DNA of 64,000 bases, taken from NCBI GenBank assembly GCA_963674755.2, contig CAXXVS010000001.1:288001-352000 (forward strand), in the 5' to 3' direction. This document shows, piece after piece, positions 41,572 through 52,842 of this stretch. The translations under genes were made by a program, and so were the position numbers. The DNA comes from Desulfobacterales bacterium. GTDB taxonomy: Bacteria; Desulfobacterota; Desulfobacteria; Desulfobacterales; UBA5852. The notes beneath the pieces were generated by a model. It was not told the DNA's origin. It searched no databases and saw nothing but the letters and a program-made list of their open reading frames with translations. The number at the start of each line of letters is the position of its first letter. Position 1 is the first letter of the stretch.

Positions 41572-41677
41572 GCGGACATACTACTAATCAAATAGCGTCA
41601 AGAGCCTTCGCACTTCTGAGGGTGGTGGGTTGTTGTGGGGGGGGTAAAAAAGAAATTGAACTTGGTTTTTAAAATCT

Positions 41678-41718
41678 AAAATGATGGTCTGGAGAGGAGT
41701 TCTCCAGGCCATCATTTT
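41678..41718. terminator. Intrinsic terminator hairpin at the end of the Arg-rich small ORF
   Basis: aaaatgatggtctggaga-ggagt-tctccaggccatcatttt; overlaps the stop at 41717. Confidence 0.7.
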
Positions 41719-41878
41719 ATGTGCGATGCTCGGGGCCTAACCGCGGGCCCTCCCGGCGGTCTTCTCCGCTACGGCGCTCCTCCCCGGAGCGGCGTTCCGG
41801 TACATGGCCGGCGTAGGAAAACTGCCGGCGGTCCGCCCCGCAGCGGCGACCGCCATTGTCCCAACACTTGGCCTCCAT
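41717..41878 (-). CDS. 53-aa Arg-rich small protein with (D/E)RRxGx(D/E)RR repeats (below the ORF-track cutoff)
   Basis: Manual translation MEAKCWDNGGRRCGADRRQFSYAGHVPERRSGEERRSGEDRREGPRLGPEHRT*; SD AAGGA 7 nt upstream; terminator at the stop. Confidence 0.75.
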   Translation of the reverse strand: MEAKCWDNGGRRCGADRRQFSYAGHVPERRSGEERRSGEDRREGPRLGPEHRT

Positions 41879-41925
41879 GGCGCCATCCTTTCCCGGGGCA
41901 ATCCAACCGCCCCATAAAAGTTGAC

Positions 41926-41967
41926 GAAAAGGGCACGGATATGATTCTCATACCCCATGCCCTTTTC
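41926..41967 (-). terminator. Terminator hairpin downstream of PEP-CTERM gene 1
   Basis: gaaaagggca...tgcccttttc inverted repeat about 30 nt after the stop. Confidence 0.65.
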
Positions 41968-41998
41968 AATGGCAACCTTTACGGATGTTACATGAAGG

Positions 41999-42823
41999 CT
42001 ATTTCTTGAACAGCTTCTTGCGGCCCATACCGGCCAGACCTACTAAACCGAGTCCCATCAGGACGATGGTTCCGGGTTCAGGGACGGGTTCAACCCCCCC
42101 GCCTCCTGCTGTGCAAATAATCCTTTCAATGTCAGTCTCAATTGTATTTGCTGTTGTGTAAGTGTAAGTACCTCCGGTTGCCCCGAATGTATATCCTCCT
42201 CCCAAACCACCTACTGCCATTGCTTGGAAAACTGCATCTCTATTAGCTTCATCTGAAGGATAATATGTAGTCCCAATTAAGGAGAATAGCATCACATCGT
42301 TTAGGATAGCCAACTGATTTGCATCATAGGCAGCATCCCAATCCGCTTGAGTTACCGGGTAGCCGTCATCGGTACCTTCGTCACCAATTGTGACAACAGC
42401 TTTAAAATAATCCTGATCGGCAGTAGTATCATCATTCCAGGCATAGTAGTTAATCAAATCGGATACAGCCGGGCCATTGTCCTCACTTTGGTTAGAGACT
42501 GGTGTGCCTCCGGCAGTAACTACATAATCATAAACATTATCACCAAAAAGACTATCTTGTGTAATTCCCATTAATGTAGCACGCACATAAACATCGCATT
42601 CCGGGCAGTCCAAACTATCAACAATAGATTGGATGGTATCATTCACGGCAGAGATTTCATCAGACATTGAGCCGCTGGTATCGAAAGCAAAAACGATGTC
42701 CAGAACATCTGTAGCCGATGCTTGGTCAGTCACATCGCCGCCTATAACGTATAATGCCCAAGCTGATGGTGAAAAAGAAACCACTAATAAAAATGCAACG
42801 AACAGGATCATTACTCTTTTCAT
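41999..42823 (-). CDS. PEP-CTERM sorting-domain protein with VWA-like (MIDAS) domain
   Basis: Signal peptide; DIVFAFDTSGSM DxSxS motif, later IGDE; C-terminal PVPEPGT + TM + RKK tail; SD GGAGG. Confidence 0.92.
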   Translation of the reverse strand: MKRVMILFVAFLLVVSFSPSAWALYVIGGDVTDQASATDVLDIVFAFDTSGSMSDEISAVNDTIQSIVDSLDCPECDVYVRATLMGITQDSLFGDNVYDYVVTAGGTPVSNQSEDNGPAVSDLINYYAWNDDTTADQDYFKAVVTIGDEGTDDGYPVTQADWDAAYDANQLAILNDVMLFSLIGTTYYPSDEANRDAVFQAMAVGGLGGGYTFGATGGTYTYTTANTIETDIERIICTAGGGGVEPVPEPGTIVLMGLGLVGLAGMGRKKLFKK

Positions 42824-42912
42824 TCTAAACCCTCCCTAATTAGGCATGTTGTCTCATATAGAGGCATCTTGAAATGATTAATATTATAAATTTATCACCT
42901 CCCTTCTATTAC

Positions 42913-42947
42913 AAAAAAACCGGGATGCTCTGTTTAGAGCAACCCGG
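42913..42947 (-). terminator. Riboswitch expression-platform terminator
   Basis: RNA CCGGGUUGCUCU-AAAC-AGAGCAUCCCGG-UUUUUUU; overlaps the aptamer 3' strand. Confidence 0.8.
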
Positions 42948-43030
42948 CTGTCTCACGAATCTGTGGCTTGCGCCCCTAAGAGACCCGTAGTTTTCCGTCC
43001 CTGGCTCACGCCAGGTTTGGCTTTTTCTGG
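42933..43030 (-). ncRNA. c-di-GMP-I (GEMM-I) riboswitch, G20 type
   Basis: RNA AAAAG-CC-AAA-CCUGGC-GUGA-GCCAGG-GAC-GG-AAA-ACUACGGGUCU...AGACAGCCGGGUUGC, matching the GEMM-I consensus (P2 with GNRA loop, GACGGAAA, AGCCGGGUUGC). Confidence 0.9.
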
Positions 43031-43041
43031 AGGGGGTATAT

Positions 43042-43057
43042 AGCAAGTGATGTGCCT
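43042..43057 (-). promoter_or_regulatory. Putative sigma54 promoter of PEP-CTERM gene 1
   Basis: Minus strand AGGCAC-atcac-TTGCT, about 12 nt before the riboswitch. Confidence 0.8.
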
Positions 43058-43328
43058 AACGGCTTATAAGATATGCGGAAAGATTTACGAATGGTTACAT
43101 CTTATTGAAATTAAGTTACAAAATGTAATGAATAATATTTATCGAGTGAATGGGAAATGGCGTGAATCACTGGATATAGCCCTGTAATTAGCAATAAGTA
43201 TATGTAAATTTTTCCCCATATGGAAAAAAATTATTCAGAGCCGAATTGCATTGCTTTGATGAAGTCGTTGCGAAAGGTCTGGCTTATGAAGGCTCCCCAA
43301 GGAGGGCCTTCAACACCGAATAAGCCTA

Positions 43329-43355
43329 CTGGGCTCCTGCCTTCGCAGGAGCGAC
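43329..43355. repeat. REP-like hairpin
   Basis: ctgggctcctgccttcgcaggagcgac. Confidence 0.45.
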
Positions 43356-43422
43356 GGCAACAAGGCGTTTGTGCCGGTGGATTTTAGCCGTTGTGAGGTT
43401 TAAGCGGGGATTCCGAAAAAAT

Positions 43423-43470
43423 AAAAAGCCCGCCCCAACGAACGCTTCTGATCGTCGGTGCGGGCTTATT
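43423..43470 (-). terminator. Terminator downstream of PEP-CTERM gene 2 (duplicated at 44601-44647)
   Basis: aaaaagcccgc...gtgcgggctt inverted repeat with an A-tract on + (U-tract on -). Confidence 0.7.
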
Positions 43471-43496
43471 TGTCATCTATTGCGAAAGGTTGGAAT

Positions 43497-44177
43497 TTAA
43501 TTCCTGAATCTTTTGCGCCCCACACCAGCCAGCCCCACCAGACCGAGGCCCATCAAGACGATGGTGCCGGGTTCGGGGACGGGGGCGGTAGAAGACCGGC
43601 GCAAATAGTTTTGCCCATTTTTACTGTAGGCAACTACAAGGGAATTTGTTAGCTTATATTCGCTCCAATCCATATCCTCCATATAGCGGATACTCTGTGC
43701 TTCCTCCCCAAGAGCATCAGCAATATAACCTTTTATCCCCAACTCCATCCAAATTGCAACTTGGTATGCACTTTGATTGCCGCCGTTGGTAAAGAAAAAG
43801 TCTGCATATTTGGCAGCTAGTCCCAATTGAGCGGTAGAATAATCGGGAACTGAATCAGGGGCATCATTGGCAAGATAACCCGACAATGTATCGAGCGTGT
43901 AAGGTGCTGCCGTCCCCAATGTCGCATCGATGCAAAAGGCAAGCGTCAAGTTATCATAATCCCAAGAATCGCCCAATGTTTCTGAAAAAGGTTCTCCAGT
44001 AAAAGCAAACTTGTATTGGGTGTACCAGTTACCATAGAGGGTGCCTTGATAGGCCGTAGCATAACTATTTTCAAGGTTGATGGGTGTTGAAAATGCTCCG
44101 CCCGGTCCGATCAACAACGCCGCAACCAGTATGGTGCAAAAGATAAAAAGTTTGCCTAAAATCCTCTGTTGTTTCAT
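43497..44177 (-). CDS. PEP-CTERM sorting-domain protein
   Basis: Signal peptide; AFCID...AYQVAIW...GQNYL pattern; PVPEPGTIVLMGLGLVGLAGVGRKRFRN tail; SD AAGGAG. Confidence 0.92.
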   Translation of the reverse strand: MKQQRILGKLFIFCTILVAALLIGPGGAFSTPINLENSYATAYQGTLYGNWYTQYKFAFTGEPFSETLGDSWDYDNLTLAFCIDATLGTAAPYTLDTLSGYLANDAPDSVPDYSTAQLGLAAKYADFFFTNGGNQSAYQVAIWMELGIKGYIADALGEEAQSIRYMEDMDWSEYKLTNSLVVAYSKNGQNYLRRSSTAPVPEPGTIVLMGLGLVGLAGVGRKRFRN

Positions 44178-44282
44178 TCAACTCTCCTTTTGGTTGATTC
44201 CTGATATCGATATATGGGGGTCGTTACCCCGGGTTAGTGGACACCTTTCCAGGATCAGGCGTTGTACGGATGGCATCAGCTA

Positions 44283-44298
44283 TTCAATCTACGTGCCT
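44283..44298 (-). promoter_or_regulatory. Putative sigma54 promoter (non-canonical -12) of PEP-CTERM gene 2
   Basis: Minus strand AGGCAC-gtaga-TTGAA, in the same ttaggcac context as the gene 1 promoter. Confidence 0.55.
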
Positions 44299-44600
44299 AA
44301 GCCAATCATTATTCTATAATTTTTTATTTACTAATTAATTTAAGTGGATACTGCAGGGTTGGATATCGTGAAATTGTCCAGAGGAGATCTTTGATCGCTT
44401 GGCTTCAGGTAATAAAGGTTATATCGGGGAACTAATTGGGTAGTTGGTTACCCAATGTGCATTAGGCGCTATTCGCAGTCCTTTTTCCCCTGGCGACCAG
44501 GCAATCAATAGGCATGATCGTGGGCGTTGGTGGCGCATGTGTTTTGTGTGCCCTTGCAGGGCAAAGTTTAGGGGGTGATGCCGGGATGCCGAAGAAAACT

Positions 44601-44647
44601 AAAAAGCCCGCCCAACGAACGCTTTCGATCGTCGGTGCGGGCTTATT
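44601..44647 (-). terminator. Terminator downstream of PEP-CTERM gene 3
   Basis: Near-identical copy of 43423-43470. Confidence 0.7.
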
Positions 44648-44672
44648 GTCGCCTAATGCGGTATGCCGAAAC

Positions 44673-45158
44673 TTAATTCCTGAATCTTTTGCGCCCCACG
44701 CCGGCCAGTCCCACCAGGCCGAGTCCCATCAGGACGATGGTACCGGGTTCGGGAACGGGCGCGCTTTCGGGAGTATGGTCCGAAATATGACCAAAATGAC
44801 CTTCATGGCTCCATTTCCATTTGTTTGGACCGTATTTGTGCCAGCCGGCCAGGTGATATCGATCGCGGCCGAAATCATCAGTGGGGCCATCGCCGGCCCA
44901 ATTGATGTAGGCGCCCCATTCTCGGTCTGTCATCCATTTCCATCCGGAACCTTGATCGTGTCGGCCGAGATCCTGGTTGCTGCGGATCCCGTATTCGCCA
45001 GAATAGTATTTCAGCGAGTCATCGTTGAAATGCGGCCCGCCCGCGTTGGCTATGGCGGTCAGAGCATGGCCGTTTCCGTTCCAATTCAATGCGGAGGCCG
45101 GACCAGCCAATGCCAGGCATAAAAAGACACCGAATAAACTCCATAACAATCTTTTCAT
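44673..45158 (-). CDS. PEP-CTERM sorting-domain protein (His/Trp/Gly-rich)
   Basis: MKRLLWSLFGVFLCLALAGPASA signal peptide; PEP-CTERM tail identical to gene 2; SD AAGGA before ATG 45158. Confidence 0.9.
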   Translation of the reverse strand: MKRLLWSLFGVFLCLALAGPASALNWNGNGHALTAIANAGGPHFNDDSLKYYSGEYGIRSNQDLGRHDQGSGWKWMTDREWGAYINWAGDGPTDDFGRDRYHLAGWHKYGPNKWKWSHEGHFGHISDHTPESAPVPEPGTIVLMGLGLVGLAGVGRKRFRN

Positions 45159-45182
45159 TTCGTTGTTCCTTTCACCAAAAAC

Positions 45183-45215
45183 CAAAACAGCCGGACTGCA
45201 TTTGCAACCCGGCTA
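45183..45215 (-). terminator. Riboswitch expression-platform terminator
   Basis: RNA UAGCCGGGUUGC-AAAU-GCAGUCCGGCUG-UUUUGGUUUUU; overlaps the aptamer 3' strand. Confidence 0.7.
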
Positions 45216-45283
45216 TCCGTGCTGTTCGAGATGGGATCCGTGGCTTTCCGTCCCTGGCTTTCGCCAAGTTTGGTCTTGGTTGG
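45201..45283 (-). ncRNA. GEMM-I riboswitch, A20 variant (candidate c-AMP-GMP sensor)
   Basis: RNA AAG-A-CC-AAA-CUUGGC-GAAA-GCCAGG-GAC-GG-AAA-GCCACGGAUCC...GGAUAGCCGGGUUGC. Confidence 0.88.
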
Positions 45284-45289
45284 AACTAT

Positions 45290-45305
45290 AGCAAAAATTG
45301 TACCG
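45290..45305 (-). promoter_or_regulatory. Putative sigma54 promoter of PEP-CTERM gene 3
   Basis: Minus strand CGGTAC-aattt-TTGCT, immediately before the riboswitch. Confidence 0.7.
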
Positions 45306-45624
45306 GATGGATGTGTTTGTGAGACACTGCGCAGAACATTTCATAATAGGGTGTAAGACATTGTAATAAAGCATAAAAAATATTGTTAACAATCATATTT
45401 TACTGGTGCCTTTGGGGCGTGCGGGATAGGATTTTACAAGGAAATTGAGGAAATGTTTTCATATGGAGCGAAATGCTTACCCATATTGGAAAGACGGTGC
45501 CGTTATTGTGGCGTTCGTTGTCCTAGTCGTCCTTTCCCTCAGGATAATACATGCTATCTTTTACAAGAACGACATCCGTTCCTGTTCGCGCCATTGACAG
45601 CGATCACGACTGATTCTATGTAAC

Positions 45625-49380: not shown

Positions 49381-50184
49381 ATGGTCAAAATTGAAGAGAT
49401 GGGCATGCCGACGGGCATCGTTTTCGATATCAAACGCTTCGCCATCCACGACGGGCCGGGAATCCGTACGACGGTCTTTCTGAAAGGATGCCCCCTGGAC
49501 TGCTGGTGGTGCCATAATCCGGAGGGGCGCCATGCGGACCCGGAATCCATGGAAGGGCCCGGCGGGAATGGAATTCCGGCGGCGGTGGGCCGGGAAATGA
49601 CCGTCGCCGAGATTATGAAAGAAATCGAAAGGGATGTCCTGTTTTATGACGAAAGCGGGGGTGGGGTTACTTTTTCCGGCGGCGAGCCCCTTCTGCAGGC
49701 GGACCTTCTATCCGCCTTGCTGGCGGACTGCCGCGGCCGGGGCCTCCACACCGCGCTCGACACCACCGGTTATGCCGCAGCGGAAATTATTTCCGGAATA
49801 GCCCCCCTGGTTGATCTCTTCCTTTACGATCTTAAACTCATGGATGACAGTGAGCACCGGACCTATACCGGTGTATCCAATGCCGGCATTCTGGAAAACC
49901 TGCGCACTATAGTGGATGCGGGACGGAGGGTTGTCATCCGTTTCCCGCTGATTCCAGGCATCAACGGCGGGACGGACAATCTGGCGCGGACGACGGCGTT
50001 CCTTAACGATTTAAACCTGAATCGGATCGATCTGCTGCCCTATCATCGCATTCATCGCCAAAAATATGAGCGTCTCGGGTGCCCCGATCGTCTGGCAGAC
50101 CTGGCGCCGCCGGGGGAGGATGCGATCGAGCGGGTGTCGGCCTATTTCACGACCCGCGGCTTCTTGGTGCAGGTGGGAGGTTAA
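49381..50184 (+). CDS. Glycyl-radical enzyme activating protein (radical SAM)
   Basis: IHDGPGIRTTVFLKGCPLDCWWCHNPE, GGVTFSGGEP, DLKLMD..H, LLPYH; start uncertain (49381/49399/49405). Confidence 0.94.
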   Translation: MVKIEEMGMPTGIVFDIKRFAIHDGPGIRTTVFLKGCPLDCWWCHNPEGRHADPESMEGPGGNGIPAAVGREMTVAEIMKEIERDVLFYDESGGGVTFSGGEPLLQADLLSALLADCRGRGLHTALDTTGYAAAEIISGIAPLVDLFLYDLKLMDDSEHRTYTGVSNAGILENLRTIVDAGRRVVIRFPLIPGINGGTDNLARTTAFLNDLNLNRIDLLPYHRIHRQKYERLGCPDRLADLAPPGEDAIERVSAYFTTRGFLVQVGG

Positions 50185-50187
50185 CTC

Positions 50188-50474
50188 GTGCCCATCCAGA
50201 GATGGCATCTTGCGGTCCCTGGCCTGCCGCCGGTGGACCAAATCCACCTTTGGCGGACAAGCTGGCGTTCGCGCCTCCTGTCGGTCCTCGGCGTAGCCGG
50301 GCGACACCTGTGGGCACCCACCGTTGAAGAATCAATCAGATGGGAAGTCCCGCTCGGCGGGACGCCCGTCGGCTGCGGTTTGTTGAACACCGATGTGTTC
50401 AACGGCCAGATGTGAAATCCCGCGCTACGCGGCGGGACCAGGAACCCAAATCTACCATCCTAACGGACACACAC
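50188..50474 (+). mobile_element. MITE family A long copy with two internal modules
   Basis: gtgcccatccagagatggcatc ... aacccaaatctaccatcctaacggacacacac; strongly similar to 63355-63776. Confidence 0.8.
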
Positions 50475-50475
50475 G

Positions 50476-52842
50476 ATGATAAGCGAACGCATACGCCGCC
50501 TGCGGCAGCAAAGCCTCGAAACGCCGGCAACCCTGACGGCCGAACGCGCCCTGCTGGTGACGCGGCTGCTCCAAAGCGGTCGCCTGGAGGGGGACGCCGT
50601 ACCGGTCCGGCGGGCCAAAATATTTCAGTATTTGATGGAAAACAAACAGATCTGCATTTCTCCGGGGGAGCTGATCGTGGGGGAACGGGGGCCGGCCCCC
50701 AAAGCCACACCCACCTATCCGGAGATCTGTCTGCACAGCCTCGATGATCTTCAATTGCTGCACGCGCGCCCCAAGGTCGCCTATGCCTCCGACGAGGCCA
50801 TGCGGCGGGTCTACGCCGAAGAGATCATCCCCTTCTGGCAGGGACGCACCATGCGCGACCGCATGTTTGCCAGCCTGCCCGCTTCATGGAAAGCGGCCTA
50901 TGAAGCCGGGGTTTTCACGGAGTTCCAGGAGCAGCGCTCCCCCGGGCACACGGCTTTGGGGGATATCGTCTACCGCAAGGGGTTTCTGGAGCTCAAGCAG
51001 GAGATTGCCGAAGCCATCGCTGCCCTGGATTTCTTCCGGGACCCGCGGGCCCTGGACAAGCAGGAGCAGTTGCAGGCCATGGACATCGCGGCCGACGCCC
51101 TGATCGCCTTTGCCCGGCGGCACGCCCGGGAACTCAGCCATCTGGCCGCCGCGGCGTCCGATCCCGAACGTAGCGAAGAGCTGCGGCAGATGGCGGCCAT
51201 CTGCCGCAAGGTGCCGGCCCACAAGCCGGAAACCTTCTGGGAAGCCTTGCAGACTTACTGGTTCGTCCATGTGGGGGTCATTACCGAGCTCAATCCCTGG
51301 GATGCCTTCAATCCCGGACGCCTGGACCAGCACCTCTACCCTTTTTATCGGAAAGAGATCGACCACGGCACCCTCACCGCCGAGCGGGCCCGGGAATTGC
51401 TCCAGGCCTTCTGGATCAAGTTCAACAACCATCCGGCGCCGCCCAAGGTTGGCATCACCGCCAAGGAGAGCAATACCTATGTGGACTTTGCCCTGATCAA
51501 CACCGGGGGGCTCACGGCCGAAGGGGACGATGCGGTCAACGAACTGAGCTATCTGATCCTGGACGTGGTGGAGGAGATGCGGCTCCTGCAGCCCAGTGCC
51601 ATGGTCCAGATCAGCAAGAAGACCCCCAACCGCTTCCTGAAACGGGCCCTGCACATCGTCAAGACCGGCTTCGGCCAGCCGTCCATTTTCAATACGGATG
51701 CCATCGTGCAGGAACTGGTGCGCCAGGGCAAGTCCCTGGCCGACGCCCGCTGCGGCGGGGCCAGCGGCTGCGTGGAAAGCGGGGCTTTCGGCCGGGAGTG
51801 CTATATCCTGACCGGCTATTTCAGTCTGCCCAAGATTCTGGAGTTGACCCTGAACAACGGGGTGGACCCCCTGACCGGCCGGCAGATCGGTCTTGCCACG
51901 GGCGCGGCGGCCGGTTTTACTTCTTTCGAGGCGCTGTTCGAGGCTTTCGAGCGCCAATTGACCCATTTCGTGGATATCAAAATCCGGGGCAACAACATCA
52001 TCGAGCGCCTCAACGCCCGGGAAATGCCGGTGCCTTTCCTCTCACTCCTGATCGAGGACTGCATTGCCAACGGCACCGACTACAATGCCGGGGGCGCGCG
52101 CTACAACACCTCTTATATCCAGGGCGTGGGGCTGGGCACGGTCACGGACGGCCTCTCTTCCCTGAAATACAACGTCTTCGAGCGCCGCCTTCTGACCATG
52201 GATGCCATGGGGCAGCTGCTGGCCGGGGATTTTGAAGAGAACGAGGCCCTGCGGCGACAACTGGCGGAGGAGACGCCCCGTTACGGCAATGACGACGACC
52301 GGGCGGATGATATCATGCGGGCCGTCTTCGAAGCCTACTACCGGGCCGTGGACGGCCGTCCCAACACCAAGGGCGGGGTTTACCGCATCAATTTGCTGCC
52401 CACCACGGTGCACGTCTATTTCGGCAGCAAACTGGGCGCCACGCCGGACGGCCGTCAGGCCGGCAAGCCGCTTTCCGAGGGCATCTCACCGGTCCAGGGC
52501 GCGGACCGCCGGGGCCCCACCGCGGTCCTGCAATCCGCCGCCAAGCTGGACCACTTGCGCACCGGGGGAACGTTGTTGAATCAGAAATTTCTGCCCCACA
52601 TCCTGCAGGATGCCACCGGCATCGATCGTCTGGCCCAGCTGGTGCGGACCTACTTCCGGATGGACGGCCACCATATCCAGTTTAACGTGGTGGACGCCGA
52701 GACCCTGCGCAAGGCCCAGCAGGCGCCCGACGACTATCGCGATCTGATCGTGCGCGTGGCCGGGTACAGCGACTATTTCGTGGATCTGACGCCGGAGCTA
52801 CAGGAAGAGATCATTCACCGGACCGCCCACGATGACAGCTGA
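50476..52842 (+). CDS. hypD: Glycyl radical enzyme, trans-4-hydroxy-L-proline dehydratase-like
   Basis: PTYPEIC, FTEFQEQRSPGH, WDAFNPGRLDQHL, PAPPKVGIT.KES.TY.DF, SGCVE, LTGY, LPTT and RVAGYS motifs, as recalled for characterised HypD. Confidence 0.87.
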   Translation: MISERIRRLRQQSLETPATLTAERALLVTRLLQSGRLEGDAVPVRRAKIFQYLMENKQICISPGELIVGERGPAPKATPTYPEICLHSLDDLQLLHARPKVAYASDEAMRRVYAEEIIPFWQGRTMRDRMFASLPASWKAAYEAGVFTEFQEQRSPGHTALGDIVYRKGFLELKQEIAEAIAALDFFRDPRALDKQEQLQAMDIAADALIAFARRHARELSHLAAAASDPERSEELRQMAAICRKVPAHKPETFWEALQTYWFVHVGVITELNPWDAFNPGRLDQHLYPFYRKEIDHGTLTAERARELLQAFWIKFNNHPAPPKVGITAKESNTYVDFALINTGGLTAEGDDAVNELSYLILDVVEEMRLLQPSAMVQISKKTPNRFLKRALHIVKTGFGQPSIFNTDAIVQELVRQGKSLADARCGGASGCVESGAFGRECYILTGYFSLPKILELTLNNGVDPLTGRQIGLATGAAAGFTSFEALFEAFERQLTHFVDIKIRGNNIIERLNAREMPVPFLSLLIEDCIANGTDYNAGGARYNTSYIQGVGLGTVTDGLSSLKYNVFERRLLTMDAMGQLLAGDFEENEALRRQLAEETPRYGNDDDRADDIMRAVFEAYYRAVDGRPNTKGGVYRINLLPTTVHVYFGSKLGATPDGRQAGKPLSEGISPVQGADRRGPTAVLQSAAKLDHLRTGGTLLNQKFLPHILQDATGIDRLAQLVRTYFRMDGHHIQFNVVDAETLRKAQQAPDDYRDLIVRVAGYSDYFVDLTPELQEEIIHRTAHDDS

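Follow-up and report, generated by a model that had tools for sequence, protein, structure and literature searches.

We analyzed a 64,000-nucleotide stretch of the genome of a Desulfobacterales bacterium (the window; contig CAXXVS010000001.1, positions 288,001 to 352,000; the genome, labeled G000, is 6.7 Mb and 97% complete), in which sigma-54-type promoters appear to be placed in series with GEMM-I riboswitches upstream of genes for PEP-CTERM surface proteins. Named homologues of its genes come from Desulfobacteraceae/Desulfobacterales. The island in question is bounded on one side by a TRAP transporter dctP gene and on the other by an amino-acid ABC transporter, has a GC content of 47.7% (vs 58–59%), and holds three PEP-CTERM genes together with an open reading frame (ORF) of 53 amino acids. 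A first-pass annotation of this DNA had described three tandem minus-strand PEP-CTERM genes, and this was borne out: the products all exceed the cut-offs of TIGR02595 and PF07589 and combine a C-terminal PEP motif, a transmembrane segment and a basic tail, while an exosortase is present in the genome. The genes and the hairpins that follow them are:

44673..45158, minus strand: gene 1, a 161-residue PEP-CTERM protein (TIGR02595, PF07589), a C-type-lectin-like orthologue that is eroded and lacks 30 residues through an in-frame deletion
44601..44644, minus strand: terminator 3′ of gene 1 (hairpin fold z −6.0)
43497..44177, minus strand: gene 2, a 226-residue PEP-CTERM protein (TIGR02595, PF07589) with no riboswitch
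43423..43467, minus strand: terminator 3′ of gene 2 (hairpin fold z −5.4)
41999..42823, minus strand: gene 3, a 274-residue PEP-CTERM protein (TIGR02595, PF07589) whose start is weakly VWA-like (below cut-off)
41926..41967, minus strand: strong hairpin 3′ of gene 3 with a short U tail (fold z −6.7)
41717..41878, minus strand: 53-residue Arg-rich microprotein with DRRQFSY..HVPERRSGE repeats, CleD-peptide-like by sequence comparison
41677..41719, no strand assigned: bidirectional terminator-like hairpin at the end of the island (predicted fold)

The control elements upstream of the three genes are given below, with aptamer positions in Vc2 numbering and palindromes scored by a matrix built from relatives only:

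45466-45483, no strand assigned: second, weak copy of the gene 1 palindrome, 3.4 bits
45446..45463, no strand assigned: gene 1 palindrome (putative enhancer), 12.9 bits, aligned in orthologous loci (G003, G004, G005)
45290..45305, minus strand: gene 1 sigma-54 −24/−12 motif CGGTAC-N5-TTGCT, identified by sequence and conserved in orthologues
45200..45284, minus strand: GEMM-I aptamer 1 (RF01051, 58 bits, cut-off 35) with A20 (45274), A47 (45247) and C92 (45204)
45184..45217, minus strand: intrinsic terminator overlapping the 3′ strand of aptamer 1 (ON logic; folding predictions)
44437..44454, no strand assigned: gene 2 palindrome TGGGTA-N6-TACCCA, 12.0 bits, also found in the G001 orthologue
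44283..44298, minus strand: gene 2 degenerate sigma-54 motif AGGCAC-N5-TTGAA, identified by sequence
43201..43218, no strand assigned: gene 3 palindrome, 16.0 bits, which includes TTTACA
43042..43057, minus strand: gene 3 sigma-54 motif AGGCAC-N5-TTGCT, identified by sequence
42934..43030, minus strand: GEMM-I aptamer 3 (RF03167, 67.3 bits; RF01051, 61.7 bits) with G20 (43021), A47 (42994), C92 (42939) and an elongated P3
42913..42948, minus strand: intrinsic terminator overlapping the 3′ strand of aptamer 3 (folding predictions)

The two GEMM-I aptamers with a 3′ strand overlapping a terminator, as first proposed, were recovered above the Rfam cut-off, and folding of the growing transcript predicted for both leaders that this strand shifts from the aptamer stem to the terminator hairpin (leader fold z-scores, −3.1 and −3.8). 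ON logic through terminator exclusion is known for pilM of Geobacter (PMC9262584), and the present leaders resemble that platform in that the aptamer 3′ strand is predicted to exclude the terminator. Aptamer 3 is like the c-di-GMP-I/GEMM-I class (RF01051, clan CL00126; Vc2), which binds cyclic di-GMP (c-di-GMP), in its score and its canonical G20-A47-C92 pocket; both aptamers keep A47 and C92, so that only position 20 of this trio differs. Assignment of aptamer 3 to RF03167, the name of which we take to denote the c-di-GMP-I-GGC variant, was ruled out despite its 67.3 bits, as that model has G at the 47-equivalent (consensus GACGCGAA) and both aptamers have A47. The G14-C93 pair of stem P1 is missing in both aptamers, and a short shifted P1 could form in aptamer 3. 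Unlike known GEMM-I riboswitches, these leaders are fused directly to sigma-54-type promoters with only 5–10 nt predicted before position 20, have a weak or missing P1, and control exosortase substrates. The claim that gene 2 is independent of GEMM control also held: no Rfam riboswitch came near the cut-off in its leader, which folds no better than shuffled sequences (z 0.34) and has no homologue among 12 relatives, ruling out a riboswitch or conserved structure there. Contigs from RNA run X8 were short and of low depth and have no bearing on termination.

Hairpins follow all three genes and good sigma-54 motifs precede genes 1 and 3, so the notion that each gene has its own promoter and terminator stands for these two and is weakened for gene 2, where the GC of the −12 element has been lost; the G001 orthologue of gene 2 has the canonical CGGCAC-N5-TTGCT. 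Upstream of gene 1, the promoter, aptamer and terminator are kept in three orthologues, while the flanks have diverged. The 13 genomes of the genus contain 103 aptamers (all RF01051 matches, three of them below the cut-off), and among the 22 that are linked to PEP-CTERM genes, 10 have a sigma-54-like motif ≤55 nt upstream of position 20, compared with 0 of the 81 others, counts in which kin are not independent. Scanning species genomes for the exact pattern gave 43 stretches, some of them repeats of genus loci and others chance matches, of which 26 carried the complete aptamer pattern, mostly before secreted proteins and with G20 in 25. RpoN, exosortase, EpsI, PrsT and the CAAX protease all exceed their cut-offs in this genome, and RpoN dependence of a PEP-CTERM gene has been shown in Aquincola (PMC9850573). 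This anatomy, conservation and enrichment support, at the level of sequence, the proposed AND gate in which a sigma-54 promoter acts in series with an ON-type GEMM-I switch for genes 1 and 3. That the −24/−12 motifs are incidental and that sigma-70 promoters drive the genes with no activator gate is highly improbable: a sigma-70-like site (10/12 matches) at 45389-45360, the degenerate −12 element of gene 2 and the sub-threshold scores of PrsR and PrsK are compatible with it, but the sigma-70 scan yielded 8 sites against 6.5 ± 2.6 expected by chance, and the −24/−12 motifs stand at a conserved, fixed distance and co-occur with the palindrome. Fusions of a sigma-54 motif to GEMM-I were also seen 5′ of genes with a PIPAA-type sorting tail in a gammaproteobacterium (L129-L130, a Methylomonas metagenome-assembled genome) and before large secreted proteins in Acidobacteriota and Binatia (the set L129-L130, L135, L139, L159, L165 and L168).

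The upstream palindrome, an 18-bp TGGGAA-N6-TTCCCA element, was first spotted by eye and then searched as a motif in 13 of the 18 PEP-linked promoters of relatives, with four operon-internal promoters and L062 left out. The total was 207 bits, compared with 127–134 bits for five shuffled sets that were run with fewer restarts, and matches of ≥12 bits were present upstream of 8 of the 9 held-out PEP-CTERM genes of G000 versus 0.5% of 4000 random windows and 3.6% of 225 AT-rich ones; the ninth gene lies directly behind another PEP-CTERM gene. Across the genome, 64 sites reach 12 bits and 16 of these have a sigma-54-like motif downstream, six preceding PEP-CTERM genes and two lying within the exosortase/exopolysaccharide (EPS) cluster. 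Our locus resembles the PEP-CTERM/PrsK/PrsR/PrsT system described by Haft et al. in 2006 (PMC1569441) in its single-gene units, long upstream regions, −24/−12 motif and upstream motif, as well as in an EPS cluster that includes exosortase, EpsI and PrsT. The upstream motif of that system is 17 nt long, ends in TTTACA and lies at a mean distance of 63 bp (maximum, 92), whereas the palindrome here spans 18 bp at ~90–155 bp from the promoter; compared by description without a logo, the two may be related. The present locus further differs from that system in its added riboswitch layer and in the lack of any PrsK or PrsR above the cut-off.

A search for PrsK/PrsR and for an exosortase, suggested along with the initial description, found only the latter. 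The best PrsR (TIGR02915) score was 434.8 against a cut-off of 502.6 among the 114 of 194 candidates scored in this 97% complete genome, and the best PrsK (TIGR02916) score was 103.9 against 300 among 79 of 127 candidates, whereas the PrsR cut-off was passed in 6 of 61 control genomes of the order; PrsK/PrsR were accordingly rejected as the activator. Two sigma-54 activators are encoded within or next to the exosortase/EPS cluster. A GAF-type one (L267:4880-6376; G000:C1:884880-886376) adjoins the PEP-CTERM CAAX protease gene and prsT. It was found in 9 of the 13 genus genomes, being 81–97% identical in 8 of 12 relatives, and is a candidate PrsR replacement. The exosortase/EPS cluster is headed by a second, Rec-less sigma-54 activator with no N-terminal sensory domain (L266:10811-11860; G000:C1:870811-871860). 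With its occurrence in 3 of 13 genus genomes, this protein was rejected as the sole activator and remains a candidate only, and no close relative of its helix-turn-helix was found in five other genomes carrying the motif or the aptamer family.

Transcription from sigma-54 promoters begins ~12 nt after the −12 motif. In gene 1, the distance from the −12 C to position 20 is just 16 nt, and the predicted transcript thus starts ~5 nt before A20 and misses the 5′ strand of P1. One reading of this leader, which we hold to be doubtful, is that the gene 1 switch is dead to its physiological ligand, with the terminator always winning in the absence of P1 and with G20A, the gene nearly silent and decaying, and only the gene 3 switch working. 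Besides the 5 nt predicted before A20 and the missing G14-C93 pair, it would account for the predicted capture of C92 by the terminator within ~8 nt of its emergence and for the erosion of gene 1, and P1 loss is known to abolish binding by Vc2 (PMC9262584). Against this, the G003 and G005 orthologues, which have intact genes, share the 16-nt spacing and the lack of C93 while keeping the aptamer core, Cd1 binds c-di-GMP without a detectable P1 (PMC9262584), and the enhancer and promoter of gene 1 are undegraded.

The base difference at position 20 (A at 45274, G at 43021) had been the ground for proposing that the two aptamers are differently tuned and that c-di-GMP versus cyclic GMP-AMP (cGAMP) selects which surface protein is displayed. 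The difference is real: contigs from sample X1 and from two other samples, X3 (same study) and X4 (another study), match the A20 region without a difference, which excludes an assembly error; what is observed is the difference of one base, from which the different tuning was deduced. Aptamer 1 is like the GEMM-Ib switches of Geobacter in having A at position 20, but A20 is rare here and neither conserved among orthologues nor dominant in the genome. G20 occurs in 100 of the 103 aptamers of the genus (A20 in 3), in 16 of the 18 in this genome (A20 in 2), in 7 of 10 distinct gene-1-slot aptamers, and in the three syntenic orthologous switches before an intact gene 1 (G003, G004, G005), whereas 12 of 17 switches of G. 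sulfurreducens bind cGAMP (PMC8835794). The exact 36-nt pattern of aptamer 1 had no match in the metagenome contigs. The A20 copy in G011 precedes a stop-riddled gene 1 pseudogene, the copy in metagenome locus L220 has a collapsed terminator (−5.4 kcal/mol vs −12.5 to −21.8 kcal/mol in the other nine), and the second A20 aptamer of G000 (L016; G000:C2:272791-272865) has a broken 21–46 pair (C21-U46) and is unlinked to a PEP-CTERM gene. A20 is, moreover, not in itself diagnostic of cGAMP selectivity, since such aptamers are often bispecific with c-di-GMP still favored (PMC6140456): Vc2 G20A binds at 53 nM to c-di-GMP and at 120 nM to cGAMP, and the corresponding values for the natural A20 aptamer Cbe 1-2 are 30 nM and 463 nM (PMC6140456).

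Gene 1 itself shows signs of erosion. It keeps 24 of 55 conserved residues compared with 88–98% in 12 homologues, its terminal branch is 0.92 against a median of 0.17, and Lectin_C exceeds its cut-off in 3/3 orthologues and not in gene 1; the ratio of nonsynonymous to synonymous substitution rates (dN/dS) against the orthologues is saturated in two of three pairs. AlphaFold models gave a predicted local distance difference test score of 45.2 and a predicted template modeling score of 0.24 for gene 1, and 59.6 and 0.54, respectively, for an intact homologue in one of five models, but the alignments (10–11 rows) are too shallow for these values to weigh more than being consistent with erosion.

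A cGAMP source is likewise equivocal. The genome has 20 GGDEF-domain matches, comprising 14 with the canonical Asp, five degenerate ones and one Hypr-type Ser with AGDEF. The last is a PAS-GGDEF protein (L037:4287-5771; G000:C3:918286-919770; GGDEF at G000:C3:919255) with GHLHGS, Ser348 and AGDEF, in agreement with the Hypr signature of Ser at 348 and [G/A/S]GDE[F/Y], and its best Protein Data Bank match is GacA (6D9M). It differs from GacA in having Val339 and Arg304 in place of Asn and Tyr and so departs from the Hypr pattern of a base-contacting Asn339 and a non-Arg residue 304; an Arg at this cross-dimer position skews products toward c-di-GMP (PMC6456294). The search for Hypr-type cyclases proposed earlier therefore returned one enzyme with the right Ser and AGDEF and the wrong residues at 304 and 339. 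Proteins of this Val/Ser type group in a supported clade found across the genus, in which residue 304 is Arg, Thr or Gln, and the literature on Hypr GGDEFs, as covered, contains no characterization of it. A CD-NTase as the cGAMP source was not supported, none being found in the genome by PF18144; a search with NF041078 was uninformative, as its control gave no match anywhere.

It is distinctly unlikely, in our view, that aptamer 1 works as a cGAMP switch of the GEMM-Ib kind, that the Hypr-like GGDEF supplies its ligand, and that the ratio of c-di-GMP to cGAMP selects gene 3 or gene 1. The genuine A20, its recurrence at the gene 1 slot, the intact state of gene 1's enhancer and promoter as well as of its aptamer core and terminator, the conserved Ser348/AGDEF enzyme, and the existence of Geobacter A20 switches whose cGAMP selectivity can be about 1200-fold (PMC6456294) favor such a switch, but two A20 aptamers would make a tiny regulon for a dedicated messenger, the orthologous switches have G20, gene 1 shows erosion, Arg304 is present and Asn339 missing in the enzyme, and CD-NTases were not detected by PF18144. 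Selection by cGAMP is thus unsupported, because A20 is rare, its orthologues have G20, the gene is eroding and A20 alone does not confer selectivity. Both switches likely read c-di-GMP, and for the A20 switch a rare variant that arose mostly by drift, on a gene under erosion, is a likelier account than a cGAMP channel of its own.

Several observations weigh against this interpretation. Of the 10 distinct aptamers at the gene 1 slot, 3 have A20, versus 1 of 97 other genus aptamers (nominal p 0.002, the aptamers not being independent), the L220 copy precedes an intact lectin gene, and the Hypr-like Val/Ser GGDEF is kept in 11 of 13 genus genomes. The frame of gene 1 is still open with most Trp residues kept (7/8), its differences from the X7 strains (~90% identical) include 8 synonymous and 10 nonsynonymous codons among the 40 of 151 rows listed, and its deletion allele is present in other samples. 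Given these codon differences and the allele elsewhere, gene 1 is not plainly neutral and shows signs, in its sequence, of residual constraint. As for the activator, G001 has the palindrome, and neither the GAF-type nor the Rec-less protein was found in it.

On balance, we favor a reading in which genes 1 and 3 need both an activator and c-di-GMP for full transcription, as the overlap of aptamer and terminator behind a sigma-54-type promoter makes likely, and in which A20 probably both weakens and broadens the gene 1 switch rather than making it cGAMP-specific. An enhancer-binding protein other than PrsR would bind TGGGAA-N6-TTCCCA ~140–150 bp upstream and open the sigma-54 promoter; ligand at C92 would then hold the aptamer 3′ strand and block the terminator, and the PEP-CTERM protein would be exported and handled by the exosortase/EpsI system of the genome. 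Gene 3 would be gated by activator and c-di-GMP through its ordinary G20-A47-C92 pocket. The predicted lack of P1 and the lineage-specific G20A would restrict the gene 1 aptamer to responding at higher c-di-GMP concentrations, giving a gate of higher threshold and lower selectivity that could also respond to cGAMP if it is made, while gene 2 would be under activator-only control through its weakened promoter.

The first-pass annotation suggested that the neighboring Arg-repeat protein may belong to the same circuit, and our data agree, because homologues carry the same upstream motifs and because the microprotein gene of G009 lies ~280 nt behind the aptamer, without an intervening PEP-CTERM gene. 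Among 27 homologues outside the genus, the palindrome was present upstream of 11 (0.7 expected from shuffles; 0/26 downstream controls) and a strict sigma-54 motif upstream of 12 (0.06 expected; 1/26 controls). The microprotein is kept at the locus in eight genus genomes, with a dN/dS of 0.14–0.24 in three unsaturated pairs, and its family occurs in 69 of 151 genomes of the order, namely in 41 of 46 with the Rec-less activator versus 28 of 105 without it. This activator lies ≤3.5 kb from the microprotein gene in at least 20 of the 46 genomes, 15 times directly upstream on the same strand, among the 150 of 187 matches listed, which suggests a trans-regulated pair. In this island, the microprotein may be transcribed by read-through of the gene 3 hairpin or from its own promoter. 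It is like the Arg-rich region of Caulobacter Cle proteins and the CSP peptide that sequesters c-di-GMP (PMC5677366, PMC7382256) in the order DRR-x-F...P-x-RR-x-x-acidic. Unlike them, it is a stand-alone protein, lacks the exact [YF]xGP[DE][RK]R tandem, and has its DRR and RRxxE motifs 10 residues apart, with a terminal Glu, where Cle/CSP have DRR and [RK]RxxD 11 residues apart; three CSP forms that each lack one linker residue retain binding, at 338–439 nM (PMC7382256, Table 1). From this resemblance in sequence, the microprotein is likely to bind c-di-GMP and, within the regulon, to serve as its buffer or as an effector. It matched no plasmid and no Pfam or NCBIfam family, and its Atlas clusters are unnamed.

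Further Arg-rich paralogues lie at G000:C1:969126-969317 and C3:1269894-1270097, with another small Arg-repeat ORF at C2:1624793-1625044. Two proteins of 67–74 residues (G000:C2:1605561-1605764 and C1:968885-969109) have a signal-like start and a PEP-CTERM-like transmembrane segment and basic tail with no PEP; the former stands behind a palindrome and sigma-54 motif, and the latter directly precedes an Arg-rich paralogue. Within the island, genes 1 and 2 have sorting tails (44673-44760 and 43497-43584) that are identical at 79 of 88 nt, near-identical terminators and unrelated N-terminal domains, and the slot in relatives holds 0–2 different PEP-CTERM genes, an arrangement that suggests cassette-like turnover. 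Beyond the TRAP transporter, the window holds a glycyl-radical enzyme and its activase (49381-52842).

All parts of the proposed circuit are of known kinds. Their arrangement was undescribed in the literature, as covered, that joins GEMM-I or c-di-GMP riboswitches with PEP-CTERM proteins or exosortases (PMC10599522 mentions both in unrelated contexts), and likewise in the covered literature that treats PrsR together with c-di-GMP or RpoN, or small proteins with a sequestering role in Desulfobacter. What is newly added is the PrsR-independent palindrome, the extension to a microprotein family, and the evidence that A20 is mostly drift. Our findings make it reasonably probable that Desulfobacterales have a PrsK/PrsR-independent sigma-54 surface regulon, composed of the palindrome, exosortase-sorted proteins, P1-less GEMM-I switches and c-di-GMP-binding microproteins, without a cGAMP step. 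It is improbable that this regulon also includes a lectin-gene switch that repeatedly gains A20 to read cGAMP from Val339/Ser348 cyclases, in a true choice between two messengers; if it did, Hypr/GEMM-Ib signaling would extend to relatives among sulfate reducers with a new enzyme subtype, and if it does not, the locus usefully cautions against taking A20 by itself as the mark of a cGAMP switch. Floc and biofilm formation requires PEP-CTERM proteins, and further regulators and DNA motifs were anticipated by Haft et al. (PMC1569441). To these the locus would contribute a new palindromic enhancer, a checkpoint at which c-di-GMP acts directly on the same transcripts, and, under shared control, a microprotein that possibly buffers c-di-GMP.

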